This document shows positions 2 through 31,999 of a stretch of 64,000 bases of DNA, piece by piece. Origin of the DNA: an uncultured Bacilli bacterium. GTDB taxonomy: Bacteria; Bacillota_I; Bacilli_A; RF39; UBA660. Position numbers and translations under genes: made by a program. The stretch lies in the NCBI GenBank assembly GCA_947585665.1, contig CANPXE010000008.1, positions 11,294 through 75,293 on the forward strand. Reading direction: 5' to 3'. The stretch's first letter is position 1; each line of letters opens with the position of its first letter. The notes under the pieces are model-generated. The model was not told the origin of the DNA and did not search any database. It worked only from the letters and a program-made list of their open reading frames with translations.

Positions 2-3000
2 AATTTAGACGAACTTCCTGAAAATACAAGAGAAATATATGCTAAATGGCAATCATCTCTTTCAGAAGCACAAAAACAGGCTTATAGAAAGTGGTATGAA
101 CAGATTTGGATAAAATTTTTAAATGAGACAAAGGCATATGGATCAGTTTATTCACACATACCAAAAGAAGCAATTACTGCTGAAATTAATAGATATTGTA
201 TTGATATTAATTTTAGATCTATTGAACTAATGCCATTACCAAAAACACAAGAACAAGTGCAAGAATATCAACAATTACTTATTTATGCTTTAGGAAAAAC
301 ACCTACAATTGACTATAAAGATGATGGGATAACTTATAAGTATGGTGATATGGATATTTTAGAAAATATTCCAAATGAATATATTAATGAAGAAGTTATA
401 AGAGCAGCTATTGAAAAAAGTATAGTTTATTTAGCTTATGCTGATCCTAATGCCGACAACTTTAAAGAATTAGTTGATATAGCATTTAAAAGAAAATTGG
501 CGAGTATTGGTAGAACGGAATTAACTGTTAAAGAACATGAGTTAATTAGGAAATTTGCTATTAACAATGCCGAATTATTTAAAACACTACAATTAGAGAT
601 ATTAGATCCTAAAATAACTGGTGTTATCAGTGAATCTAGTTTAGAAAGAATAATAAGATATACTGATGTTCAACGTTTAGTTTTAAATATTGCTAACGAT
701 GAAGCAGCATTAAAAACATTTGGATTTGCATTAGAAAATCTAAAAATGGATAATATCTTTATAGAACCATTAATTGAGAAATTAAGTCAATCTATTTCTT
801 CTCAAAAAACATATGCAGGGTATAATGCTGAAGAAAAAAAGGAGATATATAGGTCTACATTTTTAGATTTAGTTTCACAAAGAATAGATAGAAAAGATGT
901 GCCATTTACTGATTATGAAAAGGCCATTATTTCCTATTTAGCACTTAATCCACAAGAAGGAAGAAAAATAACAAGTTATGATGATATTTTAACTTTTGTT
1001 GAAAGAAAAAATAGTGAATTAGAAAGCATAGTTAATAATAAAGATTCCACGTTATTAGAAGTTAAAAATGCCTATTTAGAGCGATTGATTGGCTTAAATT
1101 ATGAAACTGTTGCTAACTTAGTGACTATGTATGGAAATGATCCAGAACAATTATTACAAAGCTACAAAAATATTAGTCCTGAATCATTTAAAGAACTTAG
1201 TGAAAAAGAAGCACTTGAAATAATTATAAAATTAAAATCTATTATTGAAACACAAGATATAGATGCCATTAGAAGTGAATTCTTTAAAGCTATCAGTCAA
1301 GAGAAAAAAGAAGAATCATTTTTACGTTATCAAAAATCAACCCTCTTAGAGACTTCATTAAGAAGAGCTTATGGTCGAGATATGGTTAGATCATTATCAA
1401 AAAATACGGATTCTTTACAAACACAAGAATTGGAGTTTGAGGGGGAAAAATATCTTGTAAGAAAAGTAAGTGGAGAATTTTATAGGATGGTTAGTTTATT
1501 AGGCGCATATCGTAAATCAACAACTACTGAAGGTGATATGTATGATAGATGGAATACCAGTAAAATGGCTAGTAACCATGCATTATGTTATAGTTTAATA
1601 AATCAATCTAATCCTGGTACAGCAATGATTAATGATAAAAAGGGTGTCATTATATCAATAAGTGGTTTCAGCCCGGAATCTATATCAGCAGAAGCCCCTT
1701 ATGATTTACGTTCTAATAATAGAAGAAATACAATATTTACTTATCGTCAACAACGTTTCTTTTCTGCTAAAAATATGCCAAATCAAATAAGAGGCAATTA
1801 TTCGGAATATGATATTGAAATTCAAGATGTTTTATCTGAAAGTGATAAATATCAAAAAATTCAACCAGCTACTATAATTTGTTTCGAAGAAGTTGATGAA
1901 GATAGTATTAGAGCCGCTATCGAACTTGGTAAAAAGTTGGGACATCCGGTTCCTATTGAAGTTATTGATAGAAGAGAACTAGCAAGAACAGAAATGGTAC
2001 ATATTATAGAAGCATTAAATAAATTTAAAACTGGCGAAACTATTGATCCTACTTTAGTTGGTGAAATTATTACAAGGTTTATTAATGTTAGAAATGCTCA
2101 TAAATTTTCTAATTTATCAGATGAATTAATAGGCGAAAATGCAGGAAAAGAGAATAAAGATGCACCATTTAATATTGATCATTTAAATAAAATTTTAAAA
2201 GAATGTCTTGCTTCAATTGAACAAAGAATTCGTAATGGACAAGTCGAAGAAGGTTTACAAGCTCTTGAAAGTATAAAAACGATGATTTTTGAGGAAAGAC
2301 AAAAAGCATACTTAATGCCAACAATGTATGAAAAGCAACTATGGATTGGAATTGATACGGATATAGATTATACTTTAGATGAACTACAAAGAACTTATGG
2401 AAAAATAAGTGTTAAACCATTAGAAAAAATTAAAACTTTAGAAATGTTATCACAAATACAAGGACAAGGTTTATCATCAATTACATTTAAAGTAGAAAGA
2501 AAAACTTATATGCCAGAACAATTATCAGTAGATCAAATTATGGAAATAATAGATGTAACAAAAATACAAGAAGGTATTGCTGAAGTACATTCACAAGGAT
2601 TTTATCAAGGTAATAAATCATATGATGAAGAACATATTGCACGAGTAATTTTATATAGTGATGCAATATCTAGAATGGAAGGTTTTGATGACAAAACTAG
2701 AATGTTGTTAATAGAGGCTGCAAAATATTATTCTTGTGGAAGACAATTAGATATTTTAGAAAAGCACGGTCAATATAGTGCAAAATTAGCTGGTAAAGCT
2801 TTAGCGGGTAAGTATTCAGCACAAGATCTTGGTGTAATTCAAGCAACAATTGAATTACAAAATTTTGAATTAACTTATTCGGGATCATTAGATTTTGAAG
2901 AGGAAAAGAAAGAAAAAATTAAGGAATTGTGTAGCAAATATGGTATTTCTGAAGAACAAGCAATTATTATAAATAAAATGGCTAGTTGCATCAGTGATTC

Positions 3001-3580
3001 TATAAAACTTGATCGAACAAGATTTATTGATAAAGCAAATGACAAAACAATAGCAAAATCATTTTATTTTGAAAGTTTGGAATTAGAATCTTCAAAGAAA
3101 ATGATAGAATTTAGTTATTTAATACAAGAACAATTAGCTCAACAGGAATTGGACATATTATTAAGTAGCGTTCAAATTGATTTTGATAAAGAAAAAGAAC
3201 AAATAATGAGTGATTTCTTTACTGAATACCATTTTGGAGGAAGAATTGATATAAAAACTAAAGATGAATCAATTACCAAGTCACCAATTGTAAGACTAGA
3301 ATATTTAAAAACAAAACATCCCGAAATTGTTAGAACAAGTTCTAATTTTTTATCAGAAAAAAAACAAAATAAAGAAGAATTAATAGAAAGGGAAAAAACT
3401 CCTGAAAAATTACAATTAGATGATGTCCAAAGACAAAATTTAATAAGGCAACGAATTGAAACACGAATTTCTGAATTAGGAATACAAACAAGTTCGTCTT
3501 TATCATCTGGTAATTCGTTTGAGCAACATGAATCAGGTCAAGAGATAGAGACAGAAACACATCATGATATAAAAATGTAA
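2..3580 (+). CDS. large hypothetical protein (more than 1190 aa), 5' end outside window
   Basis: Frame 2 is open from base 2 directly into the tracked ORF 230..3580, so the Met at 230 is internal and the true start lies upstream of the window. The protein is helical and E/K/I/L-rich. The segment EEHIARVILYSDAISRMEGFDDKTRMLLIEAAKYYSCGRQ follows the HD-domain pattern (H..RV ... AA..HD.GR), but HD is replaced by YS. No P-loop was seen. Confidence 0.7.
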   Translation, partial: NLDELPENTREIYAKWQSSLSEAQKQAYRKWYEQIWIKFLNETKAYGSVYSHIPKEAITAEINRYCIDINFRSIELMPLPKTQEQVQEYQQLLIYALGKTPTIDYKDDGITYKYGDMDILENIPNEYINEEVIRAAIEKSIVYLAYADPNADNFKELVDIAFKRKLASIGRTELTVKEHELIRKFAINNAELFKTLQLEILDPKITGVISESSLERIIRYTDVQRLVLNIANDEAALKTFGFALENLKMDNIFIEPLIEKLSQSISSQKTYAGYNAEEKKEIYRSTFLDLVSQRIDRKDVPFTDYEKAIISYLALNPQEGRKITSYDDILTFVERKNSELESIVNNKDSTLLEVKNAYLERLIGLNYETVANLVTMYGNDPEQLLQSYKNISPESFKELSEKEALEIIIKLKSIIETQDIDAIRSEFFKAISQEKKEESFLRYQKSTLLETSLRRAYGRDMVRSLSKNTDSLQTQELEFEGEKYLVRKVSGEFYRMVSLLGAYRKSTTTEGDMYDRWNTSKMASNHALCYSLINQSNPGTAMINDKKGVIISISGFSPESISAEAPYDLRSNNRRNTIFTYRQQRFFSAKNMPNQIRGNYSEYDIEIQDVLSESDKYQKIQPATIICFEEVDEDSIRAAIELGKKLGHPVPIEVIDRRELARTEMVHIIEALNKFKTGETIDPTLVGEIITRFINVRNAHKFSNLSDELIGENAGKENKDAPFNIDHLNKILKECLASIEQRIRNGQVEEGLQALESIKTMIFEERQKAYLMPTMYEKQLWIGIDTDIDYTLDELQRTYGKISVKPLEKIKTLEMLSQIQGQGLSSITFKVERKTYMPEQLSVDQIMEIIDVTKIQEGIAEVHSQGFYQGNKSYDEEHIARVILYSDAISRMEGFDDKTRMLLIEAAKYYSCGRQLDILEKHGQYSAKLAGKALAGKYSAQDLGVIQATIELQNFELTYSGSLDFEEEKKEKIKELCSKYGISEEQAIIINKMASCISDSIKLDRTRFIDKANDKTIAKSFYFESLELESSKKMIEFSYLIQEQLAQQELDILLSSVQIDFDKEKEQIMSDFFTEYHFGGRIDIKTKDESITKSPIVRLEYLKTKHPEIVRTSSNFLSEKKQNKEELIEREKTPEKLQLDDVQRQNLIRQRIETRISELGIQTSSSLSSGNSFEQHESGQEIETETHHDIKM

Positions 3581-3703: not shown

Positions 3704-4402
3704 TTAAGAATTTAGTATCCATTCAATAATTGCTTTTTTAATTTCATAGTATTCTTCTTCTTCAAACTGCATATTGGCAATACAAAATCTTTTAGAAGCA
3801 ATGTGGGAACAAAATATACACTCGTATAGATTGTAACAGTCTTGAATGAATAGGGAATTACTAACTTTGTTAGAACAAATGACGTTATAACTATTACTAC
3901 AGTCTTTGGAATCATCACATCTTATACAAAAATTACAAGTACCAGATCTTTGAGAAGCTAATAGAAATTCACTATTACCACAAGAATCACAATAAATTAA
4001 ATTTTTAGAATCACTACAATCAGTACAACGATAAATATTTTCAGAGCGATAAATAGTATCGCTTTTTATAACGTTTAATGAGTCATAAACTCTTTCCGTT
4101 GTCGTTAAATTAATACTCTTCCAAATAGTAATTAGTTCTTGTAAGTCATTTATATCTGTTTTGGGTAGCATCCAGCCTGTCGTTTCATCACGTTTTTCCA
4201 TATTTTGGTTAGTTATGAACTTTTCACTACTTATAGAATTGGCCCATGTTACTTCATTAGTAGTTGAGTCATATACTTGTTTTGGTAATTTGACATCAAA
4301 AGCAAACTTTTCAAGAAGAGTGTCCAAATCAAAAGAATTATTTTTATCAAAAACACTTTTAAATATTTTATTTACTATTTCTAATGCTTTATTATCATTC
4401 AT
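3704..4402 (-). CDS. Cys-rich hypothetical protein (CxxC-rich C-terminal module)
   Basis: The ATG overlaps the upstream stop (TAATG) and follows the SD AAGGTGGTGA. The C-terminal ~100 aa hold at least 14 Cys, including CTDC-x9-CDSC and CNFCIRC, with a roughly 12-residue periodicity. I recognise no family. Confidence 0.75.
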   Translation of the reverse strand: MNDNKALEIVNKIFKSVFDKNNSFDLDTLLEKFAFDVKLPKQVYDSTTNEVTWANSISSEKFITNQNMEKRDETTGWMLPKTDINDLQELITIWKSINLTTTERVYDSLNVIKSDTIYRSENIYRCTDCSDSKNLIYCDSCGNSEFLLASQRSGTCNFCIRCDDSKDCSNSYNVICSNKVSNSLFIQDCYNLYECIFCSHIASKRFCIANMQFEEEEYYEIKKAIIEWILNS

Positions 4403-6252
4403 TATCTCACCACCTTCATACTTGTTGAATTAGTAACTAATATTTCATGTAAATCAATATCGGTATTTAATTTAAAGTTGTGTTTCTTGGGTTCCATTTT
4501 CTTTTCCTCTTTACTTTCTATTGGCGTTTCTTTTTTAACTCTTGGAATACTTGTATAATCAATTGTTCTTCCTTTAAAAGCTGGTAATAGAATACCATTT
4601 TCATCTATTCTAGCAATGCATTCACGATTATTTAATTCTGTTAACATTTTAATTTTTCTTTCACGAGTATCATCTAGCGGTATTTTCATATTAAAATTAT
4701 CAACTAAGATGTTGGCATCTAGTTTAGATACTCTAAAAATAAAGTAATTGATGACATTTGCAAAAATAGCATTTTTTAATTCTTCTGATATTTGACTAAA
4801 ATATTGACTTGCTAGAACAAGAGATAAGTTATATTTTCTAGCTTCTGAAAGATATCTTGAAAGAATTGGATTTTCCACAACAGCAACTTCATCAATGATA
4901 AAAATTATATGTTCATCAATTTCTCTTTTTTGCACGATCGTTAAAAGTTGTTGCATGATAAGTCCAGCAATTGTTTTAGTAACTTTATCACCAAGTTTAG
5001 TTCTATCAAGTGAAAATAAAGTTAAAAAGTTATTGTCAATCGTTTTCTTTAAATTGTCCATTTCCATACTGGAACTAAAGACAGGAAGCATTTCCATTTC
5101 ATCAATAAAAGCAATAATAGGGGAAATAGCTTCATTATAAGATTTAGTTTTTAAGTCATTAAAGTCTGATAAAAAGAAATCAATGACACTAATTGGTAAC
5201 TTATCTTTTAGTTTTTTAATTAAGTCATTACGATATTCTAATTCTAAAATTAATTTTCGCAATGTTTTAAAACTAAATGATTCATCAGTTAATAAAATAT
5301 GAATAGAGTGTCTTAATACTCTTTCCAATTTAGAATTGTATTGATCAGCAATCAAAGATTTTAATAGGTCTAATAATAATTCTGTTGCGGAAACGATGTC
5401 ATCACTCTTATTAATGAATAAGTCGATACTATCTAAATTAGTTCTAAAATCAATTACTTTGCCAATCCCACCAATATCATTTTCTAGGGAAGCATGCGGA
5501 TCAATTACAACAACTTTATATTGATCTTTAAAGTCATTATTCTTAGATATGTTATTAATTAAAGAACTGATAAATTTTGATTTTCCACAACCAGATGATC
5601 CAATAATAATGGAATGTTTATCAAAACTAAAACTATTTTGTTTTAGATAAAAATTACCCTGTAAATAAGGAAATGTATCAATTTCTAACAAAGAATTATT
5701 TAAATCAGTGCTCAATAGATGAAGTATTTTATTTATATCTAAATATTTTGGCGCCGTTTTATAAAAGTATCTTTTATTTCCTTCAAAATCAACTGATAAA
5801 AGATTAGTTGGAATAGGAAGAATAATGCGATATTTTTTTATTACTCCATTTTTATTTAAATAGAAATATACTTTAGATTTAATCTTATCTTCATATAATT
5901 TACGAAAATTAATTTCGACAATTCTGAGGGCCCCTTTATTCTTAATTTCGCTATAATTGATTAAATCAATAATACTACTACCAATTTTAGGTAATGATAG
6001 GTATGCATAATTGATTTTTGGTAAGTTTATATCATCAACCTTTTTTAATAAAAAAGAATTTAAATTATTAATAGTTGTTGGCAAATTATATTTTGATTTA
6101 ATAAAATATCTTATTTGATTTTTATCATTGACAATTATTAATTTCCAATTTTTAAGAACACCACAATAAGTAGATATTGTTCTAATGAACTCTAACCATT
6201 CTTCTTTACTGACAAACTTTTTTGTCAAATAAATTTCTTGAAACAACCCCAT
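4402..6252 (-). CDS. FtsK/HerA-superfamily P-loop ATPase (DUF87/HerA-like)
   Basis: Motifs seen are Walker A GSSGCGKSKF, Walker B HIIFIIDEVAVV, and ARKYNLSLVLASQYFSQIS, which resembles the HerA/VirD4 post-Walker-B segment. I prefer the ATG at 6252 (SD GAGGTGA 5 nt upstream) over the tracked GTG at 6261. About 210 aa at the N-terminus are of unknown type. Confidence 0.75.
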   Translation of the reverse strand: MGLFQEIYLTKKFVSKEEWLEFIRTISTYCGVLKNWKLIIVNDKNQIRYFIKSKYNLPTTINNLNSFLLKKVDDINLPKINYAYLSLPKIGSSIIDLINYSEIKNKGALRIVEINFRKLYEDKIKSKVYFYLNKNGVIKKYRIILPIPTNLLSVDFEGNKRYFYKTAPKYLDINKILHLLSTDLNNSLLEIDTFPYLQGNFYLKQNSFSFDKHSIIIGSSGCGKSKFISSLINNISKNNDFKDQYKVVVIDPHASLENDIGGIGKVIDFRTNLDSIDLFINKSDDIVSATELLLDLLKSLIADQYNSKLERVLRHSIHILLTDESFSFKTLRKLILELEYRNDLIKKLKDKLPISVIDFFLSDFNDLKTKSYNEAISPIIAFIDEMEMLPVFSSSMEMDNLKKTIDNNFLTLFSLDRTKLGDKVTKTIAGLIMQQLLTIVQKREIDEHIIFIIDEVAVVENPILSRYLSEARKYNLSLVLASQYFSQISEELKNAIFANVINYFIFRVSKLDANILVDNFNMKIPLDDTRERKIKMLTELNNRECIARIDENGILLPAFKGRTIDYTSIPRVKKETPIESKEEKKMEPKKHNFKLNTDIDLHEILVTNSTSMKVVR

Positions 6253-6326
6253 ATCTTTCACCTCGCGATAAAGTATATCAAAAAAGGCAAATAAAAAACT
6301 GACTTTTTAATAATCAGTTTTGTCAG

Positions 6327-7121
6327 TTAATAGATGGCAACTAAAAAATCAGTTATATCATCGTGATAGTATTCTAATTCCGGTATTTCTTTTAAATTAT
6401 ATTTACAAGATGGTAAAAATTCATTATAAAAGCGATGAGATATATCTTGAATATCTTCCGGACTTTCAGAATTAATACGAAAACGTAGCCATTTACTCTT
6501 AGGAATAGTAATTTGCTCAAAGTCTTTTCCTGGTTTATCAAATAGACAATAATATTTTTGACTTTCTTCATGCCCGATGTCATAAGTAATCATTCCATAC
6601 TTTACAGGACCATATTCAGAAACGTATTTTTTAATTACTTTTTGAAAGAAGATAGGAGCTTCTTGTCCAATTTTTTCATTACTTGTTTCAAAACCAATAC
6701 CATATAGTTTTAATTCATCAAGTTCAATTATTTCATAATCTAGTTCAGTTGTTATTGCAATATCTTCATTAAATACTATTCTTGGGAAGTTTTTAAGTTT
6801 TGTTTCCTTAGTGACAAGACTAGGTTTAATACCATGAAATTTCTCAAAGGCTCTTGAAAAAGAGGTAGCATTATCATATTGGTACTTAATGGCGATGTCC
6901 ATTATTTTTTCTTTGTTTTCATATAAGTCGTAACCAGCATTAGATAGTCTTCTTTTACGAATATATTCAGAGATAGAAAGCCCAGCAATCATCGTAAATA
7001 GTCTTTGCATTGTATAGACATTAACACCAATAAAGTGTGCTAAAACGTTGTAGTCTATTTCTTCTTCTAAATTATCATCAATATATTTAGTTATATCATT
7101 TAGACATTTATATATATTCAA
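6327..7121 (-). CDS. AraC-family transcriptional regulator with GyrI-like effector domain
   Basis: The N-terminal AraC HTH includes ISEYIRKRRLSNAGYDL and YDNATSFSRAFEKFHGIKPS. The C-terminal ~150 aa resemble a GyrI-like small-molecule-binding fold. The start is TTG, preceded by AGGTGATG. Confidence 0.8.
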   Translation of the reverse strand: MNIYKCLNDITKYIDDNLEEEIDYNVLAHFIGVNVYTMQRLFTMIAGLSISEYIRKRRLSNAGYDLYENKEKIMDIAIKYQYDNATSFSRAFEKFHGIKPSLVTKETKLKNFPRIVFNEDIAITTELDYEIIELDELKLYGIGFETSNEKIGQEAPIFFQKVIKKYVSEYGPVKYGMITYDIGHEESQKYYCLFDKPGKDFEQITIPKSKWLRFRINSESPEDIQDISHRFYNEFLPSCKYNLKEIPELEYYHDDITDFLVAIY

Positions 7122-7208
7122 AGGACATCACCTATATATATTCTATCATATAACATTGACTAGCATAAAATAAAAATCTATAATAATTTATTGAAAAGAG
7201 GCGACTTT

Positions 7209-7862
7209 ATGTCAAAAGAACAAAATGTCATAAGTTATTATGTAATATGCAATAGATTAAAAGATATTATTAGAACCGGTTGGAAAAATTGGAATGTTCA
7301 AAGAGAAAGAGTTGAGAGTGTTGCTGAACATATTTTTGGTGTTCAAATGTTAGCAATTGCCATGAAATCAGAGTATGAATATGATGTAGATATTATGAAA
7401 GTAGTGTATATGCTTGCTATTCATGAAATTGGTGAAGCTGTTATTGGTGATTTAACGCAATTTCAAATATCAAAAGAAGAAAAAGAAAAAATTGAACATG
7501 AAGCAGTACATAAAATATTAGGTGACCTATTAGATGGTGACAAAATTGAAGAATTATTTTTAGAATTTGATTCTCATAATACAAAAGAATCAATATTTGC
7601 TTATCAATGTGATAAATTAGAATGCGATTTACAATGTAAGTTATATGATGAAGAAGGGTGCGTTGATATTCAAAAACAAGAGATTGATAATCCAATAAAA
7701 AATGCAAGAGTTCAAGAATTACTCAAAACAGGTTCTTCTTGGTCAACGATGTGGATTAAATTCGGTCAACAAACTTACCCATATGATAAAAATTTTAAAA
7801 CTATTTCAAATTATGCTCTTAATAATGAAATAGGCAAAGTTAAGAATAAGCACCTTGATTAA
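7209..7862 (+). CDS. HD-domain 5'-deoxynucleotidase (YfbR/HDDC2-like)
   Basis: RERVESVAEHIFGVQMLAIAM and LAIHEIGEAVIGDLT match the YfbR-type HD motifs. The ATG at 7209 follows AAGAGG, so the tracked TTG at 7191 is unlikely. Confidence 0.75.
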   Translation: MSKEQNVISYYVICNRLKDIIRTGWKNWNVQRERVESVAEHIFGVQMLAIAMKSEYEYDVDIMKVVYMLAIHEIGEAVIGDLTQFQISKEEKEKIEHEAVHKILGDLLDGDKIEELFLEFDSHNTKESIFAYQCDKLECDLQCKLYDEEGCVDIQKQEIDNPIKNARVQELLKTGSSWSTMWIKFGQQTYPYDKNFKTISNYALNNEIGKVKNKHLD

Positions 7863-7931
7863 AAAAGCTTTAGATTTGATTAATAATATATTTATTTTTA
7901 CTAATTTAAATTTTAATACTAATTACTGAAT

Positions 7932-7966
7932 AAAGAACTATCAATTAGATAGCTCTTTATTTTTAT
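7932..7966. terminator. hairpin terminator, copy 2 of the repeated element
   Basis: AAAGAACTATCAATTAGATAGCTCTTTATTTTTAT lies downstream of the HD gene. It carries the same A.C stem mismatch as copy 3. Confidence 0.55.
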
Positions 7967-8104
7967 ATTAAGCGATAATTTTATTTACATTCAAAAAAAT
8001 TATACTATCAAGTTTGATTAATTATTGCAATTTTAAATGTAAATATGGAAAAATTATTATGATATAGTATAATTAAATTAATAATATGAAATGAGGATTA
8101 GAAA

Positions 8105-8869
8105 ATGGGAAAATTATATCATGGAAGCTTAGAAAGAGGAATTACAAGACTAGAACCTCATAAATCAACACATGGTAAGTATGTTTATGCTACACCATAT
8201 AAAGAATTAGCAATTATTTTTTCAGGAAGATGTGGAGATGATTGTACTTATGCTTTATATAGATATAACAATGATGAAATATGGCAATTGGTAGAAAGAA
8301 TACCAGAAGCATTTAACACAATGTTTAGTAATAGTTCATCAATTTATACTTTAGATGATGCAACATTTAAAGATATACACACTGGTTTCGCAGAAGTTGT
8401 TTCAGAAGTTGGTGTTAATACTGAAAGTGAAGAATTTATTGAAAATGTTTATGATAATATTAAAAGACTAGCAAATGAAGGTAAAATTAAGTTATATATA
8501 TATCCAAATAAACCTAAAGAAATACCACAGGATAGTTCTGATTTAATTGATAAACAAATTAAACAAAATCAAAGAGATAATAATCCTATCACTAAGAAGT
8601 CTTTTGAAAGAATTGTATTATTACATCCGTATTTAATAGATAAAGTTAATCAAAAAATGATTGAATTAGGGTTGGATGTTGAACCATATCAAAAAGATGA
8701 TTTAATCAATTTGTTTTCTAATGCGGTGATTATGCAAGATACCAATCCAAATAATGAACAATATTTAAAATCTATACTTATTTCTATTTCAAATACTTAT
8801 CCTGAATTATTACCTATTTTAAATAAGGAGTATAAATCTAAAGAAGGAAAGAAACACATTAATAGTTGA
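8105..8869 (+). CDS. hypothetical protein with N-terminal LYHGS / YVYAT motifs (possible ADP-ribosyltransferase-like fold)
   Basis: The SD GAGGA lies 7 nt upstream. The N-terminus MGKLYHGSLERGITRLEP...GKYVYATPY resembles the H-G-[ST] plus aromatic-x-[ST] motifs of H-Y-E ART folds and DUF3990-type proteins. This is a recollection-level similarity only. Confidence 0.6.
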   Translation: MGKLYHGSLERGITRLEPHKSTHGKYVYATPYKELAIIFSGRCGDDCTYALYRYNNDEIWQLVERIPEAFNTMFSNSSSIYTLDDATFKDIHTGFAEVVSEVGVNTESEEFIENVYDNIKRLANEGKIKLYIYPNKPKEIPQDSSDLIDKQIKQNQRDNNPITKKSFERIVLLHPYLIDKVNQKMIELGLDVEPYQKDDLINLFSNAVIMQDTNPNNEQYLKSILISISNTYPELLPILNKEYKSKEGKKHINS

Positions 8870-8913
8870 GCTAATTAGTTAATTTGAATCAGAATTTCTA
8901 CAAAAAAAATAAA

Positions 8914-8940
8914 CGTCGCATTAATAATGCGACGATTTTT
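8914..8940. terminator. bidirectional rho-independent terminator
   Basis: The hairpin CGTCGCATTAATAATGCGACG is flanked by an A-run and a T-run, between convergent genes. Confidence 0.65.
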
Positions 8941-9006
8941 ACTTTTGAAGTTGAAAAACTATAATTTACAAACTATGTATTTTTGTAATAAATATATTAA
9001 AAATTA

Positions 9007-9372
9007 TTATTTATTTTTAATTTTTATTTTACTAATTGTATAATTAAAGTTTTGACAGAACTTCATCATTTCTTCGTCTGAAATGCCACTATCTAGCAAA
9101 TTATTGAAATAATCTTTGTATTGACTTTCATTAACGTCTTTTTGTAAAGATATTAAATATAAACATGCTTCAGTAGATGTGTCAAATGATTTAGCAGAAT
9201 AAAAGCCTCTTCTTTCATCAGTTTTCCATACTATCCATTTACCATTTTCTGTTTTAAAAATACATTTATAATATGATGATCTTCCACTTCCTAATAGGGT
9301 ATCTTTAGCAAAATCATATTTTTTTCCAGTTTCGCAATAAGAATGAATTGCAATTATTTCTTTTTTTGTCAA
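9007..9372 (-). CDS. hypothetical protein, possibly the 3' part of a frameshifted gene
   Basis: The only available start is TTG, with no SD. An upstream 41-codon ORF (ATG at 9494) would fuse in frame if the A7 run at 9397..9403 were A8. Confidence 0.45.
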   Translation of the reverse strand: MTKKEIIAIHSYCETGKKYDFAKDTLLGSGRSSYYKCIFKTENGKWIVWKTDERRGFYSAKSFDTSTEACLYLISLQKDVNESQYKDYFNNLLDSGISDEEMMKFCQNFNYTISKIKIKNK

Positions 9373-9592
9373 AGAACGTGTTTCGGATACTTTCCTAAAA
9401 AAATGTGCACATCAAATTTACAATTTTCAAATATATTACCAACATTCCTGTAATACGTACATACTGGTACTTTGTGATTGCCTTCTTCTATCATACTAAT
9501 ACTTCTTTCCCGTTCTTGTTTTTGGGGGTAACTTTAACTTTCCGTTGACCTCAGCATCAACTCTTTCAATAGTTATTGTCTTTTTTTTGCAT
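9373..9592 (-). pseudogene. fragmented reading frames upstream of 9007..9372 (decayed or frameshifted gene?)
   Basis: A strong SD (AGGAAGG) and ATG at 9592 lead to a stop after only 8 codons, directly after an 8-nt homopolymer (9581..9588). A second fragment, MIEEGNHKVPVCTYYRNVGNIFENCKFDVHIF, stops shortly after a 7-nt homopolymer. Confidence 0.3.
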
Positions 9593-9757
9593 TTATATAA
9601 CCTTCCTAATTAATTATAACATATCTAGTTATTTTAATATCAATAAGGTAATAATTTTGTGAGTGTAGTTCATATAAATACAATTGCTTTCTAGAAATAT
9701 AAATGACAACAATACTTTCTAAAATTTAACAACATAAAAATTAATTTTCTATATCTT

Positions 9758-10675
9758 TTATAATTTTTTTAAAATATAAACATAATAAGTATTATTTATA
9801 ATAGTGTAGTAGTTATTCTGATAATTAAAGATATTTATATTATTATTTATGGCTATATTAACTAAATCTTTTAAATTATTTAAATATATAATATTCTTAC
9901 TATTTATATTAGGTTTATTTTGAATAGCTATAATTATATCTTGATATTCTTTTAAAATAACTTCTTCATTATTCTTACTGAATAAAGTTTTACTTACTAT
10001 GAGAATAATAACTATAACGATAAAATCAAAAACTAACATTTCATTAAGACCAATATCTTGTGTATTATTTTCTAAAAAAGTATTATCTTCTTTCATCGTT
10101 ATTTCGATAACATTTTCATTAATAGGAATTGTTAATAAAACATAGGGATTAGTTTGGTCATTAATTTTGATATTAAGCTTAACGTATAAATAAGTTTCTG
10201 TCTTAATATTATAGTATTCTTGAAAAGTTTTAACATAATTGACATAATATTGATAATCTAAATTATAATTTTCTTTTATACTAATTTCTTTTTGCTTTAT
10301 ATTATTTATCTTTTTTAAATTAAAATTCTTAGTCCAAATTAATTTAGTACCATTATCAGCATAGCTTTTTAGAGTAGCTGTAATATCATAAGAATAATTA
10401 ATGTTTTCTTTTGTTTTATTTTTTAAATAGTAATTAAAATAGATATCAATAGTTTTAATAGAATTTGCAATATAATAATTATTAGCTTCTATTTTATTAT
10501 TAAAAAAATAATTATTAGGTTTTAAAGTAACTTCATAATATGTTTTATTCTTTGATTCATATATATTATTATTTTGAATATTTTTACTAAAATATATTAT
10601 CTCTAATAAAAGAATTCCTATTATAATAATACTTAAAATAATTAGTATTTTTATTTTTTTTCTCTTTTTCTGCAT
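9758..10675 (-). CDS. bitopic membrane protein, DUF5305-like partner of SipW-type peptidases
   Basis: The ATG at 10675 lies 8 nt after AAGGAG, which overlaps the upstream stop. The protein has an N-terminal TM, an N/Y/K-rich ~190-aa ectodomain, a second TM (FDFIVIVIILIV) and a ~80-aa tail. The family name is from memory of annotated neighbourhoods. Confidence 0.6.
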   Translation of the reverse strand: MQKKRKKIKILIILSIIIIGILLLEIIYFSKNIQNNNIYESKNKTYYEVTLKPNNYFFNNKIEANNYYIANSIKTIDIYFNYYLKNKTKENINYSYDITATLKSYADNGTKLIWTKNFNLKKINNIKQKEISIKENYNLDYQYYVNYVKTFQEYYNIKTETYLYVKLNIKINDQTNPYVLLTIPINENVIEITMKEDNTFLENNTQDIGLNEMLVFDFIVIVIILIVSKTLFSKNNEEVILKEYQDIIIAIQNKPNINSKNIIYLNNLKDLVNIAINNNINIFNYQNNYYTIINNTYYVYILKKL

Positions 10676-10677
10676 AT

Positions 10678-11769
10678 TCAATTCTCCTTATTAAAAAGCT
10701 CATTTAACCAAATAGAAGGATAGCCTAAATATTTTATATGGAATTGATAAACACCTTTTATATCTTCTTTTTTAATTTTTATATAATCTATGGTATTATT
10801 AGCATCTCCTTTGGTAATATAGTATTCATTTATACTTACAATACGATGAACAATAATTTGATTTTCATATTTAAAAACAATAATATCTCCTGGGAAAATA
10901 TTTTCTTCTCTTTTATAAATGACAACGTCGCCCTTTCTAAAAATAGGATTCATACTATTGGATAGAATGGCTATAGGTTGATAATTAAATACTCCAAGCA
11001 TAAATAGTACTAATAGAATAGAAGTAATAATAGTTAAAGGATAAAGCATTGTAAAGTTTTTGAAATGATATATATTTTTTTTATTAAAAATAAAATATTT
11101 AAACAAATAGTAAATAATTATAACTTTAATAATAGCAAAAGAACCTTCAATAAACCAATTACTATAAGGAATAATTGGTAAAAAGAGTTCAGGTAATTCA
11201 TTAAAAATTCTAATAATAATAGAAACATTATAATGGGAATTTAAAGATAGATATGTAAATAAAATATTTTGCGCGATAATTGGTATAACTATAGAAATTA
11301 AATAATGTAAAAAAGTAATATTATGAGAAAGAAATAAAGCATTAAAATTAATCTCATTCATGATAATAATTATGGTTATTAAAGTCATAATTACAAAATT
11401 GTTTTTATTACTTTTAATAAGTTTATAACGCATTATTTCAATACCACATATAGGTAAGATAATTTTCCACAAACTTTTAAAAGTATAAACTACTGTATGA
11501 TCATAAGGATTCTTATTAAAGCCAACAATAAAACCACTAACTAAATAAAGTATTAAAAAAATAATGGATATAGTTAAAGTGATATTAACTTCTTTTCTAT
11601 TAAGTAACTTTAAATCCTGATGATAAAAAATTATCAAAAAGCATAACCAAAATATTGGATTAAGAAAATAAATATAAAAATTATTATTATATAAAAAGAT
11701 ATGACTTAGTGTATAAAGGATTAAAAGAAAAAATAATTTCTTTCTTTTAAGAATTTTCTTTTTGAACAT
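10678..11769 (-). CDS. polytopic membrane domain fused to SipW-type (ER/archaeal-type) S26 signal peptidase I
   Basis: The C-terminal ~110 aa read ILSNSMNPIFRKGDVV...IIVHRIV...TKGDANN, giving the Ser box, His box and GDxN of SipW-like peptidases. About 250 aa with about 8 hydrophobic helices precede this core. The gene overlaps the upstream gene by 23 nt. Confidence 0.8.
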   Translation of the reverse strand: MFKKKILKRKKLFFLLILYTLSHIFLYNNNFYIYFLNPIFWLCFLIIFYHQDLKLLNRKEVNITLTISIIFLILYLVSGFIVGFNKNPYDHTVVYTFKSLWKIILPICGIEIMRYKLIKSNKNNFVIMTLITIIIIMNEINFNALFLSHNITFLHYLISIVIPIIAQNILFTYLSLNSHYNVSIIIRIFNELPELFLPIIPYSNWFIEGSFAIIKVIIIYYLFKYFIFNKKNIYHFKNFTMLYPLTIITSILLVLFMLGVFNYQPIAILSNSMNPIFRKGDVVIYKREENIFPGDIIVFKYENQIIVHRIVSINEYYITKGDANNTIDYIKIKKEDIKGVYQFHIKYLGYPSIWLNELFNKEN

Positions 11770-12247
11770 ATTGAATTATTCCAACTAACGTTTTTGTTTT
11801 GACACTGGGAATACTTTCGGTATCTTTAACATAGGTTACCATAATATTGAAAGTGGTTGAGTCACCGGCATTTAAGTCTTTCTTAAGTTCCGAAGTAGTA
11901 TAATTAATTTCTTCAATACCATCAATTTCTTCAGTAAATATTATAGTTTGTAATTCAGCATCAATAGTTCCTAAATTTTGTATGGTTACTTCATAAATAA
12001 TTTCATCGCCTGGTTTATTAAGCTTAGCTGAAAAATTAATAGAATCATTAGTGAAAGTAGGTATTCCAGCATCACAGCCATCTGGAACTTGAGTAGCTTT
12101 TATATTTGTTATTCTAACATCCCACTCACCAGTAATTTCTGTAGTTCCATTAATAGTAAAATCTGTAGCAAATGTTGAATAACCAATGGCCATTAAAATA
12201 ATAGTTGCAAGAAAGGCTATAAGAATTATTATTTTATTTTTATGCAA
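11747..12247 (-). CDS. small secreted protein with SipW-cognate-type signal peptide (TasA/BsaA-like candidate substrate)
   Basis: The TTG start lies 5 nt after AGGAGGGAG. The N-terminus is MHKNKIIILIAFLATIILMAIGYSTFATDFT, and the rest is a beta-rich domain with an Ig/CARDB-style motif, PGDEIIYEVTIQNLGTIDAEL. Confidence 0.65.
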   Translation of the reverse strand: MHKNKIIILIAFLATIILMAIGYSTFATDFTINGTTEITGEWDVRITNIKATQVPDGCDAGIPTFTNDSINFSAKLNKPGDEIIYEVTIQNLGTIDAELQTIIFTEEIDGIEEINYTTSELKKDLNAGDSTTFNIMVTYVKDTESIPSVKTKTLVGIIQYVQKENS

Positions 12248-12501
12248 ATTTATCTCCCTCCTTTAGCATTTATGCTATCCTGTTATAATGTATACAGGAT
12301 TAAACAATTTGTATGGTTAATTGGTTTAAGGTTGCAAAGAAAAGTTAATTTTAAATTAAAAATTGTGAAAGTTTGTGTTGCATATGTCTATTATAGTTGT
12401 TTATAAAATTTTTATTTGGTAACTTTGGGCAACAAAAAAAAGAACTATAATAGTTCTAATAAATTCAATATAGAGTAAATATGTGAGAAGTCTACAACTT
12501 T

Positions 12502-13461
12502 TTATTTTGAATAGCCAGTGCTATTGTCTTGCATAAAATGTATATCGATAGGTATGCTCTCGCCATCAACATAACCCATCTTTTTTGCTTTTGTTTGAGT
12601 TAATTCATACATTCTATCAATTTCAAAATAAGAAATGCCTTTACTAACTATCGGACCATATATCGCAATTCCATATTCACTTGTCATATTTGGATCATTA
12701 TATGGACTTCTCGTATTGTCAATAGCAATTCCGATTGATTGTAATAATTCTTTAAAATCAGACAAAGAATCTAATCTTTTTTGTAATTCTTCGCCACTTA
12801 ATTTTCCATCTCTTAATCCTTGAACATCACCAAAGCTTGCTTTGTTATTCATTACATTTTCAAATGGTATTAAATAAATTCTATTTTTACCAGTGCAAAA
12901 GTTACTTGCTAGTCTTTTGGCTCTAAATAACGCTTCATCTTTTCTTTCTAAGGGAAAACCATCAAATTTAGAAATTTGATAATCTAAAACTCTACAATAA
13001 AAGTCTACTTCACTTTCTCCAACATTTGGTTGAATTGGCCAACTGTGATTAGCATAACATTGAAAAACATCTTCAAAAATACCTGCTGGAAAAGTTTGCA
13101 TACCATAATTAAATTCAACTGTTCCTAAAAGTGTTGTATATAAAGTTGATAGATTATTATCTGAGTAATTAATTGTTTTTCCAAAACAAGAAGCAATAAA
13201 TTTCGCATCTTCAATATCTTGGGTAGAAAGTTTTAAATTTGATAACCCATTTTCATTCGCCTGACTATTAAAATAACAGCTCAATCCACATGCTAAAAAG
13301 GGCATTGGTTGAGATAAATTGTATTCTTGTAATAATTTAAGAGTTTCATAATAATCATTTGTATCATATAAATGTTGCAATTGTATATTTAGTCTCACTG
13401 CTGTATTTGCTGATTTTAAAAATTTTGTAATAATTGTTTTTATATAATCTATATTAAACAT
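12502..13461 (-). CDS. hypothetical protein
   Basis: A clean 319-codon ORF with its ATG behind AGGAGG. I recognise no motifs. Confidence 0.7.
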   Translation of the reverse strand: MFNIDYIKTIITKFLKSANTAVRLNIQLQHLYDTNDYYETLKLLQEYNLSQPMPFLACGLSCYFNSQANENGLSNLKLSTQDIEDAKFIASCFGKTINYSDNNLSTLYTTLLGTVEFNYGMQTFPAGIFEDVFQCYANHSWPIQPNVGESEVDFYCRVLDYQISKFDGFPLERKDEALFRAKRLASNFCTGKNRIYLIPFENVMNNKASFGDVQGLRDGKLSGEELQKRLDSLSDFKELLQSIGIAIDNTRSPYNDPNMTSEYGIAIYGPIVSKGISYFEIDRMYELTQTKAKKMGYVDGESIPIDIHFMQDNSTGYSK

Positions 13462-13650
13462 AAAACCTCCTAATATTTCTATATTTGTCCTAATAGAATT
13501 ATAGCATACTTTTAGTTATTTTCCTTTATATTTATTGTAGGTTTTATATTTGATTATTTGAAATGATACATATTTTTGAACAATATAAAATAATTTTATA
13601 AAATTGATAAAAGTAATGCTATAATTATTTATGAAAGGTAGTGATTATAG

Positions 13651-15492
13651 ATGGCTGAGTTTGTATCTATTGAAAAAGATAAATATAAAATTGTTGGAAC
13701 ATTAACTGAAGAAGATGTAAATAGAATAAATGCATTTAAGAATAGGACAACTATAATACTTGATAATACTGCTGGTTTATCAAGTGAATTGGTTTCTAAA
13801 ATAAAATCTGATCGAGTTGTTTTTAGTATTAAAGGTGGATTGGATTATGAAACAAAAGAAAAATATAAAGCTCAATATTATGTTGATAGAACTTTTGTGT
13901 CTCCTAAAGGGTTAAAAAAAATTATTGAATATTTTGAGTATAACGAACGTTTAATTGATCCAAATTGGAATGAATTTGAAAAGGCTATGTTTTTATATAA
14001 TGCTCTTGTCGTAGATATGAAATATGCTGAAGGCTATGAAAAAATGCAATCTAAAGGTACAATTGAAAGAGGTTTAAACGGAATATTATATAGTAAGTTA
14101 GTTTGTAGTGGCTTTGCTCAAGTATACAAAGAAATGCTAGATAGAGTTGGGATAAAGAACTATTACCAAAATCAAAAAGATGTACATTCATTTAATATTA
14201 TTGAAATAGATGGTAAGAAATATGGTGTAGATGTTACATGGGATAATAACGATAAACAGTATCACGATGGTAAATGCATTTTTGGAAGTTTTGGTCATGA
14301 TCCAGAATTTTACAATAGACGTGGACATCAATTATATACTGAAGAAGACGACTTTGATTTCGATCCGGAAAATGAATGGGAAACGAAAATAGTTTATGAT
14401 TCAGATGAAGAAATATTTGATTTATCACTACTAAGTATGGATCAACTAAAGGAATATTATGGAAATATTGTTTCAAGAATTGATAATAGAAAACCATTTA
14501 GATACAATTTACAAGATCAACCTCTTGAAGTTAAAAGTAATTACTTGCCTATTGACGCAGTTGAATTTAGATTAGGACAAGAAGCAAATAGAGAATATCC
14601 TATTGTTTTAATTTTAGACTTTTTGAAAAAAAGAGATGCATTACAAATTGACCCGCAACTAATAAAAGCTTTTTCTAGTAGAATAGGATATGTACTAGAT
14701 ATTGGTGATACAGATAGAAGATATAGTTATGGTGTTAATTTATCATTAATTGGTATTGATAATTATGAGATTGATAGATTTGGAACTATAAGATTTGATG
14801 ATGGTAATGAAAAAAGACATAGTTATATTAGGGGAATTTTTGACAGTTCTTCAAATATGTCTCAAGAGGAATTAAATACATTATATGATAATTTAAACAA
14901 GTATTTAAATGAATATTTTAATAATTATATTTCAGGTATTACTAATAATTTAGATACATTATTAGAAAATTATGAATATAAACCTGATGAATGGGATTCT
15001 GATAGGGCAATTGAAAACTGTAATATATATAGTAAGTTAGCAATAATAGTTAATAGTCGTGATTATTTGATACAATTAGGTATGAGTGAACAAGAAGCTG
15101 ATGATACCATAAAAAGAATAAAAAGCAAATATGATGAGATACATAAACCATATGAAAGTACTATTAGTCAAAGAGAACGTGATTTAGGCTTTTTATCAGC
15201 AGTATTTAGTGATTTTAATATGGGATGGCAAACAATCGAATATGATTTACAAAAACCAATAACTGAAGAAGAATTTGTTTCATTATATGGTAATGCTGAT
15301 TATATGATTCCATTATTTGAGAAATATGTTACAATAGCGGAAGATAAAAAGTTTAAATTTGATGAATATGATGTTTCAAAAGATGATTTACAACAATTAT
15401 TAAATAAAAAAATACAAGATTATCAAGAACAGAAAAAGATGAGTGGATCTACTGAAGTAGAAGAAAAGCAAAATTCAGGAGTGCATATATAA
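13651..15492 (+). CDS. transglutaminase-like (papain-fold) domain protein
   Basis: LVCSGFAQVYKEMLDRVGIKNYYQNQKDVHSFNIIEIDGKKYGVDVTWDN shows the spacing of the transglutaminase-core Cys-His-Asp triad. It is followed by a long helical C-terminal region. Confidence 0.65.
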   Translation: MAEFVSIEKDKYKIVGTLTEEDVNRINAFKNRTTIILDNTAGLSSELVSKIKSDRVVFSIKGGLDYETKEKYKAQYYVDRTFVSPKGLKKIIEYFEYNERLIDPNWNEFEKAMFLYNALVVDMKYAEGYEKMQSKGTIERGLNGILYSKLVCSGFAQVYKEMLDRVGIKNYYQNQKDVHSFNIIEIDGKKYGVDVTWDNNDKQYHDGKCIFGSFGHDPEFYNRRGHQLYTEEDDFDFDPENEWETKIVYDSDEEIFDLSLLSMDQLKEYYGNIVSRIDNRKPFRYNLQDQPLEVKSNYLPIDAVEFRLGQEANREYPIVLILDFLKKRDALQIDPQLIKAFSSRIGYVLDIGDTDRRYSYGVNLSLIGIDNYEIDRFGTIRFDDGNEKRHSYIRGIFDSSSNMSQEELNTLYDNLNKYLNEYFNNYISGITNNLDTLLENYEYKPDEWDSDRAIENCNIYSKLAIIVNSRDYLIQLGMSEQEADDTIKRIKSKYDEIHKPYESTISQRERDLGFLSAVFSDFNMGWQTIEYDLQKPITEEEFVSLYGNADYMIPLFEKYVTIAEDKKFKFDEYDVSKDDLQQLLNKKIQDYQEQKKMSGSTEVEEKQNSGVHI

Positions 15493-16438: not shown

Positions 16439-16512
16439 TGGAGCAGATGATGGGAATCGGACCCACGCAGTCAGCTTGGAAGGCTGAGGTTCTACCATTA
16501 AACTACATCTGC
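16439..16512 (-). tRNA. tRNA-Gly (anticodon UCC), CCA encoded
   Basis: The manual cloverleaf has acceptor GCAGATG/CATCTGC, D stem GTTT/GAAC, anticodon stem TCAGC/GCTGA with loop CTTCCAA, and T arm GTGGG-TCCGATT-CCCAT. The T loop reads TCC where TTC is expected. Confidence 0.85.
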
Positions 16513-31923: not shown

Positions 31924-31999
31924 GGGGCATTAGCTCAGCTGGGAGAGCGCCACGTTTGCACCGTGGAGGTCAGGAGTTCGATCCTCCTATGCTCCACCA
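31924..31999 (+). tRNA. tRNA-Ala (anticodon UGC), CCA encoded
   Basis: The acceptor GGGGCAT/ATGCTCC includes the G3:U70 Ala identity pair. The anticodon loop is TTTGCAC and the T loop is the canonical TTCGATC. Confidence 0.95.

Follow-up and report, generated by a model that had tools for sequence, protein, structure and literature searches.

AbpX of Pyrodictium abyssi, a member of the TasA superfamily, assembles into polymers through donor-strand complementation and with calcium (Sleutel et al., bioRxiv 10.64898/2026.01.04.697558, January 2026; PDB 9sj2, 9rhp). According to this preprint, a signal peptidase I (SPase I) with ten transmembrane (TM) segments is found in bacterial and archaeal AbpX loci, most of which also have genes for minor subunits, for tip proteins and for a DUF5305 protein termed "SPase I accessory"; the peptidase and the DUF5305 protein are likened to the eukaryotic signal peptidase complex (SPC), and no function is proposed for the extra helices of the peptidase. 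Here we analyse a 64,000-nucleotide (nt) stretch of contig CANPXE010000008.1 (assembly GCA_947585665.1; hereafter the window) from an uncultured "Bacilli" bacterium, which contains a minus-strand operon of three genes: gene 1, for a small secreted protein, gene 2, for a signal peptidase fused to an N-terminal polytopic membrane domain (hereafter N-domain), and gene 3, for a DUF5305 protein. To judge from its sequence, the operon is most likely an AbpX-type locus of minimal size for extracellular (biofilm-matrix) fibres of the TasA superfamily; its host belongs to an AT-rich gut lineage of uncultured "Bacilli". A first-pass annotation of this DNA had considered that it might specify an undescribed fibre system. 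Because loci with a ten-TM SPase I and DUF5305 are reported in the AbpX preprint, the type of system is already described, and the window holds a new, minimal, gut-bacterial example of it.

The operon also resembles tapA-sipW-tasA of Bacillus subtilis and sipW-bsaA of Clostridium perfringens, in which a dedicated ER (endoplasmic reticulum)/archaeal-type Ser/His signal peptidase stands beside a TasA-superfamily matrix subunit. The relationship between TasA and AbpA was established by the ABP paper (PMC9245690), and the subunit of these operons polymerises by donor-strand exchange once cleaved (PMC9674648). SipW has about 190 amino acids (aa) and no polytopic domain, whereas gene 2 encodes 363 aa and scores below the cut-off of the SipW equivalog model. 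The window operon has a DUF5305 partner, which the SipW operon does not, and lacks both a TapA-like gene and a TIGR04088 signal peptide. In the haloarchaeal Tafi system, an SPase I and DUF5305 pair likewise lies beside TasA-superfamily fibre subunits (TafA/TafE; PMC11821415, PMC12337348), and the peptidase TafD, paired with the DUF5305 protein TafG, is needed for the processing of TafA (PMC11821415). Tafi subunits use the Tat pathway, whereas gene 1 has no twin-arginine motif, and TafD has four TM segments and a C-terminal extra domain, in contrast to the N-terminal eight-helix domain of gene 2.

The gene 1 product and its relation to AbpX

A profile built from 55 syntenic homologues of gene 1 matched AbpX among the PDB sequences (9sj2_C, E 3.7e-13; 9rhp_A, E 1.1e-9), in an alignment of about 140 residues that starts at the donor strand, whereas TasA (5of1) was reached with an E value of only 0.11. 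The match to AbpX persisted (E 6e-7) with a bacteria-only profile, from which archaeal, Chloroflexota and other distant sequences had been removed. Taken alone, gene 1 gave sub-threshold matches to the generic beta-sandwich families DUF7507, DUF11 and choice-of-anchor D, and such matches among members of its family were to DUF7507, DUF11, CARDB, camelysin, TasA and BsaA. Four of the 55 homologues weakly matched the TasA model NF046066, two the BsaA model TIGR04090 (2.2e-6) and six the camelysin model PF12389; the few TasA and BsaA matches fit the TasA superfamily. The first reading, in which gene 1 encodes a small secreted substrate with a beta domain from the TasA/BsaA/camelysin superfamily, is supported.

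The features described earlier for the N-terminus of gene 1, a basic stretch (MHKNK), a single hydrophobic helix (residues 6-24) and the junction AIGYSTFATDFT, are all present. The proposed SipW-cognate type of signal peptide found no support, since TIGR04088 matched neither gene 1 (at E<=1) nor any of the 55 homologues (at E<=0.1). Cleavage is predicted at G-Y-S↓T; we place the site at G-Y-S↓T-F-A because F26 aligns with W2 of mature AbpX. In the same hmmalign alignment F30, I32 and D43 correspond to L6, L8 and D18 of AbpX, the four residues being F2, F6, I8 and D19 of the mature subunit. The motif G-[YF]-[AS]-x-[FYW]-x-x-x-L-x-I-x-G, which includes the aromatic position, is kept across all phyla (57 homologues), directly after the signal peptide. 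Mature gene 1 (residues 25-166) has an isoelectric point (pI) of 4.15 and 16.2% Asp+Glu, and AbpX homologues are reported to have a pI of ~4 and ~15% Asp/Glu (bioRxiv 10.64898/2026.01.04.697558). The window operon and AbpX loci have in common an acidic mature subunit of ~160 aa, homologous at the profile level, with a predicted N-terminal donor strand that bears an aromatic residue at position 2.

The signal peptidase and its DUF5305 partner

Residues 244-354 of gene 2 match TIGR02228, the model for archaeal/ER-type signal peptidase I (81.8 bits, 4.6e-23, cut-off 51.85), and the motifs SNSMNP (270-275), VHRIV (307-311) and TKGDANN (319-325), from which an ER/archaeal-type S26 core had been recognised by eye, are all present. 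Residues S272, H308, R309, D322 and D328 are each kept in 72 of 72 full-length bacterial and archaeal homologues, and gene 2 has an intact Ser/His/Asp catalytic set instead of Ser/Lys. The SipW equivalog NF046067 scored 47.1 bits against a cut-off of 190. An AlphaFold 2 (AF2) model of gene 2, computed from a 97-sequence alignment (predicted local distance difference test, pLDDT, 83; predicted TM-score, pTM, 0.75), begins with eight long helices, continues with an anchor helix and ends in a catalytic domain rich in beta structure, in agreement with the earlier count of about eight TM helices ahead of the S26 core. The best Foldseek matches of this model were human SEC11C and SEC11A (7p2q_A, 7p2p_A), followed by Streptococcus pyogenes SipA. 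SEC11 as the best structural match of the catalytic domain recalls the eukaryotic SPC (SEC11A/C, SPCS1, SPCS2, SPCS3; 7p2p, 7p2q), where accessory TM and beta-sandwich subunits around SEC11 parallel, in idea only, the N-domain and the DUF5305 protein; gene 2 differs in that its extra helices are fused in cis and in that it would serve a dedicated substrate and not as a general enzyme.

Gene 3 was identified as a DUF5305 protein by PF17231 (37 bits, 3.3e-9, cut-off 29). Its hydropathy profile, with a TM helix at 10-28, a predicted extracellular domain at about 29-213, a second TM helix at 214-232 and a cytoplasmic tail, agrees with the published DUF5305 architecture (bioRxiv 10.64898/2026.01.04.697558) and with the bitopic protein of DUF5305 kind that the first-pass annotation had recognised.

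The N-terminal membrane domain

Foldseek searches with the full gene 2 model returned S24/S26 matches only and were blind to the N-domain, which was therefore modelled separately. The domain has no Pfam or NCBIfam match, and a domain profile returned zero matches among PDB sequences. Searched against 1.84 billion representative sequences, the N-domain profile retrieved 1355 clusters (50% identity), 871 of them at E<=1e-10, and the best 150 of the 1355 clusters are nearly all 350-400 aa long, which is the length of the fusion. On these sequence lengths the N-domain is essentially confined to the S26 fusion. The fused peptidase was further represented by 295 proteins in a 90% clustered collection, mostly with lengths of 350-410 aa, and by 529 confirmed stretches in species-representative genomes; what had at first looked like an unusual fusion is normal for a large family. 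One candidate for a stand-alone N-domain, P0121 (L081:207-1335; 244 aa), was rejected: it is followed 44 nt on by a 116-aa open reading frame (ORF), lies on a contig of ~2x coverage and is most likely a frameshifted or mis-assembled split fusion, and no free domain.

Within the N-domain, E111 is invariant (72 of 72 full-length homologues) and R114 is kept in 68 of 72, being replaced by Lys in Desulfurococcales; G79, P198 and P201 are further conserved residues. Because the N-terminus is basic and the catalytic domain faces outward, we count nine membrane spans in gene 2, as opposed to the ten of the preprint, and on this nine-span topology E111 would lie in the cytoplasmic half of helix 4.

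The AF2 model of the isolated N-domain (pLDDT 86.7, pTM 0.85) had no Foldseek match at E<=0.001. The top two matches were Rce1 (4cad_F; E 0.39, probability 0.90, TM-score 0.44) and APH-1 (8oqy_C; E 0.41, probability 0.60, TM-score 0.34), all three being eight-helix bundles of similar size in which helix 4 bears conserved Glu and Arg residues. For a comparison with Rce1/CPBP proteins (PF02517), which these two matches and a GIExxR motif had suggested, 79 genuine family members were fetched with a synthetic consensus query, 44 of them were aligned and hhalign was run twice, giving a profile-profile probability of 0.3%. The N-domain has no conserved His, so that CPBP motifs 2 (FxxxH) and 3 (HxxxN/D) are absent, and a regular-expression scan for CPBP motifs over all ORFs of the related loci returned one spurious ORF only. 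Membership of the CPBP/Rce1 family was rejected on these grounds. The model may keep a weak fold resemblance to Rce1 and APH-1, which has no statistical significance, and the N-domain should not be filed as a CPBP, Rce1 or APH-1 member. The first-pass annotation could assign the helices ahead of the S26 core to no family, and the N-domain is indeed covered by no curated family.

Conservation of the gene arrangement

To place the operon among its relatives we fetched 80 loci encoding the fused peptidase and ran jackhmmer on all their ORFs. Between one and five gene 1-like genes lie directly upstream of the fused peptidase in 57 of the 80 loci, and a DUF5305 gene, 3' of the peptidase gene, is found in 63. 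The arrangement is kept in gut Bacilli, in Clostridia and in metagenome-assembled genomes of "Tenericutes", and equally in Saccharibacteria (L042, L057), Chloroflexota (L062, L075), Acidimicrobiales (L077; Actinomycetota), Bathyarchaeia (L070) and Thermoproteota/Desulfurococcales (L071, L078, L080), so that synteny extends across two domains of life. Jackhmmer E values for the N-domain range from 1e-26 to 5e-55 in the distant loci, and from 1e-26 to 3e-43 in the archaeal ones (L070, L071, L078, L080). Since the arrangement holds across bacterial and archaeal phyla, the three genes are co-conserved, as the first-pass annotation had required of a genuine system. AbpX loci show the same neighbourhood, a subunit gene next to a multi-TM TIGR02228 signal peptidase and a DUF5305 gene, in an order that is found again in Bacillota, Chloroflexota and Thermoproteota.

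In many of the distant loci a gene 3' of the DUF5305 gene encodes a 620-900-aa protein with the gene 1 domain, a probable tip or anchor component that neither the window nor its close relatives L001-L005 and L061 encode. This large subunit-domain protein (at about 8000-10400 in each locus) was recorded in L026, L031, L038, L040-L044, L046, L047, L051, L053, L057 and L058. Locus L044 carries two pairs of subunit and fused peptidase (5248-8072 and 10623-12492), and three loci have an extra short stand-alone S26 peptidase of 182-190 aa near the cassette (L009:4698-5270, L031:1779-2336 and L075:2998-3546).

Weighing the alternatives

Several observations weigh against an AbpX-type fibre locus. Gene 1 as a single sequence found no PDB sequence at E<=10, and a profile of its immediate clade alone reached AbpX at a marginal E of 0.025, so that the link between gene 1 and AbpX is one of transitive profile homology. 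The donor-strand calcium ligand E4 of AbpX is T4 in gene 1, with Asp at position 5; D46 and D48 fall in an AbpX-specific insertion that gene 1 lacks; and of the other ligands (D18, D46, D48, E52, E142) D18 alone has a clear counterpart (D19). With E4 replaced and the D46/D48 loop missing, calcium-triggered assembly is uncertain for gene 1; calcium coordination is common, not universal, in the AbpX family (bioRxiv 10.64898/2026.01.04.697558). No minor subunit, tip or anchor gene is found in the window, and every role assigned to the N-domain is conjecture. Other differences from the known AbpX loci are the absence of SLH, LPXTG and sortase genes from the window, a shorter signal peptide (24 aa versus 54 in P. 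abyssi) and the AT-rich gut "Bacilli" background. The missing tip and anchor genes, the absent E4 ligand and the restriction of single-sequence matches to DUF7507, DUF11 and choice-of-anchor D would all suit a monomeric secreted or surface beta-sandwich protein, such as a CARDB/DUF11-like adhesin or binding module, with a dedicated signal peptidase. Such a protein would, however, hardly be expected to match AbpX at the family level over 140 residues including the donor strand, or to keep an aromatic-bearing N-terminal motif across phyla directly after the signal peptide, and many loci combine several paralogous subunits with a large subunit-domain protein, as fibre systems do; we regard a monomer as extremely unlikely.

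The first-pass annotation had read the operon as one of SipW type, and its broader suggestion, that a dedicated peptidase serves a fibre or matrix system, stands. A canonical SipW/TasA-type operon, in which a SipW orthologue has accreted a membrane domain and processes a TasA, camelysin or BsaA substrate through a SipW-cognate signal peptide, shares with the window the Ser/His/Asp catalytic type, the ER/archaeal S26 subfamily and the scattered matches of gene 1 homologues to the TasA, BsaA and camelysin models. Mature TasA, moreover, starts with A-F-N-D and so has an aromatic residue at position 2. The SipW equivalog score nevertheless stays far below its cut-off, no family member matches TIGR04088, the family profile matches AbpX far better than TasA, no TapA-like gene is present, and SipW has neither polytopic domain nor DUF5305 partner; a SipW operon proper is accordingly very unlikely. 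That the membrane module provides a second processing activity, one of the options raised in the first-pass annotation, is speculative. A different proposal concerns gene 2 alone, which would be bifunctional if its N-domain were a diverged Rce1/CPBP-fold intramembrane glutamic protease that makes a second cleavage, for example to degrade the released signal peptide or to trim the subunit. Both top Foldseek matches of the isolated N-domain belong to the CPBP/APH-1 superfamily, and an invariant Glu with Arg/Lys lies on the fourth helix, toward the cytoplasmic side. CPBP motif 1 is reportedly EExxxR on TM4. The spacing in gene 2 is E-x-x-R and not EE-x-x-x-R, and this, together with Foldseek E values of 0.39-0.41, the hhalign result and the loss of both His motifs, makes a protease seem to us quite unlikely. 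An AbpX-type fibre locus remains the reading that we favour.

Operon layout and genomic surroundings

The features of the operon are collected in Table 1. The three minus-strand genes are tightly coupled, as first described. Genes 1 and 2 overlap by 23 nt, and the identical overlap in the closest relatives (L001, L002, L004, L061) argues for translational coupling of the two. The Shine-Dalgarno (SD) sequence of gene 1, AAAGGAGGG, lies 8 nt 5' of its TTG start. Gene 3 starts in the ORF list at a TTG (10681), with an alternative ATG at 10675, 7 nt 3' of AAGGAG; the ATG, which yields the 305-aa protein called on ENA contigs that carry an identical peptidase, is almost certainly the true start. 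The TGA stop of gene 2 (10678-10680) thus falls between the AAGGAG SD and the ATG of gene 3, so that its earlier placement inside the SD was approximately right. A promoter scan of the operon performed no better than on shuffled sequence and no promoter was assigned; the gene 1 promoter presumably lies in the intergenic region upstream. No terminator was found in a scan of the operon.

Table 1. Coordinates of the operon features in the window.
Feature	Position	Strand	Description	Basis
Intergenic region 5' of gene 1	12248..12501	-	holds AAAGGAGGG at about 12256-12264	sequence
Gene 1	11747..12247	-	166 aa, TTG start	ORF list
AbpX-like (TasA-superfamily) fibre subunit precursor, probable	11747..12247	-	166 aa	profile match to AbpX
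Gene 1 signal peptide, predicted	12176..12247	-	residues 1-24; basic MHKNK, hydrophobic helix 6-24	hydropathy
Predicted N-terminal donor strand of mature subunit	12134..12175	-	TFATDFTINGTTEI	hmmalign to AbpX
Gene 2	10678..11769	-	363 aa, ATG start	ORF list
Polytopic N-domain	11047..11769	-	residues 1-241, eight long helices, family-specific, unnamed	AF2, profile
E111-x-x-R114	11428..11439	-	on helix 4, membrane-embedded	homologue conservation
Anchor helix and ER/archaeal-type S26 signal peptidase domain	10678..11046	-	helix 242-257, domain 258-363, stop codon	TIGR02228, Foldseek
Catalytic residues	Ser272 10954-10956, His308 10846-10848, Asp322/Asp328	-		conservation
Gene 3, DUF5305 bitopic accessory protein, putative	9758..10675	-	305 aa from ATG	PF17231

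The GC content of the operon is 20.6%, compared with 28.1% for the window, and is the fourth lowest among 247 windows of equal size. The high AT content remarked on earlier therefore holds for the operon as a whole and not for gene 1, which is average (28.9%); gene 2 has 20.3% GC and gene 3 16.2%. Ile, Asn, Lys, Tyr and Phe are abundant in the products of these two genes, and because this content could explain the low GC, composition alone is no sign of foreign origin. Horizontal transfer, considered on account of the AT-richness, was accordingly left unsupported. A megablast search with positions 9000-13500 against plasmid and phage collections returned no match.

Five ORFs have no Pfam match, at 230-3580 (+), 8105-8869 (+), 9007-9372 (-), 12502-13461 (-) and 13651-15492 (+); they include one of 1116 aa and one of 613 aa, and four of the five directly flank the operon. 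The 319-aa ORF upstream of gene 1 has neither a signal peptide nor a TM segment. A block at 3704-7121, 2.6 kb from the operon, comprises a 232-aa ORF at 3704-4402 (-), a TrwB/TraG-like type IV coupling ATPase at 4402-6261 (-) and an AraC/GyrI-like regulator at 6327-7121 (-). Homologues of the ATPase and of the 232-aa ORF lie near the fibre operon, on its opposite side, in L005 (144-3570; 75-85% identity), which also has a homologue of the regulator (73% identity), and in L016 (6-2173; 70-80% identity); L082-L084 are also listed with this neighbourhood, which may represent a mobile-element or island context. The window contains only two tRNA genes, tRNA-Gly(UCC) at 16439-16512 (-) and tRNA-Ala(UGC) at 31924-31999 (+).

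Proposed mechanism and implications

On the AbpX-type reading, the precursor encoded by gene 1 would carry a Sec-type signal peptide and be exported by the Sec route. The S26 domain of gene 2 (Ser272/His308/Asp322) would cleave the precursor near G-Y-S↓T-F-A, at the external surface of the membrane, and so set free an amphipathic strand at the new N-terminus (T-F-A-T-D-F-T-I...), position 2 of which is aromatic. The freed strand would then complete the next subunit, entering its open beta-sandwich (jelly-roll or Ig-like) by donor-strand complementation, and the acidic subunits could in this way polymerise into thin fibrils that require no chaperone. Gene 3, with its predicted extracellular beta domain, two TM helices and cytoplasmic tail, is a candidate accessory subunit of the peptidase, and for the peptidase family the eight-helix N-domain may be a membrane module that is always required. 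The N-domain and the DUF5305 protein most likely form a signal-peptidase complex. The invariant E-x-x-R/K, on helix 4 towards the cytoplasm, might serve this complex as a docking site for the signal peptide peculiar to the family, and the complex might couple cleavage to the hand-over of subunits for polymerisation. A bolder version of this proposal, which we hold to be unlikely, makes the N-domain an active, ancient membrane module, possibly a descendant of the Rce1/CPBP/APH-1 fold, whose Glu-x-x-Arg would gate cleavage and hand-over by binding the signal peptide, or would clear the signal peptide once cleaved.

The N-domain, unnamed, found in more than 1300 clusters and bearing a universal intramembrane Glu, may have a part in substrate-dedicated signal peptide cleavage, and the three-gene cassette is small and tractable for heterologous reconstitution. 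If the bolder version of the proposal is right, the N-domain and the DUF5305 protein would make up a multi-component prokaryotic signal-peptidase machine common to bacteria and archaea, in parallel to the eukaryotic SPC. Bacteria and archaea increasingly appear to share a matrix scaffold of TasA-superfamily fibres that assemble by donor-strand exchange, and the locus described here would show the AbpX branch pared down to its barest form, three genes, in an uncultured AT-rich gut "Bacilli" lineage. The cassette also reaches Saccharibacteria, Actinomycetota and Bathyarchaeia, which extends it beyond the reported range.

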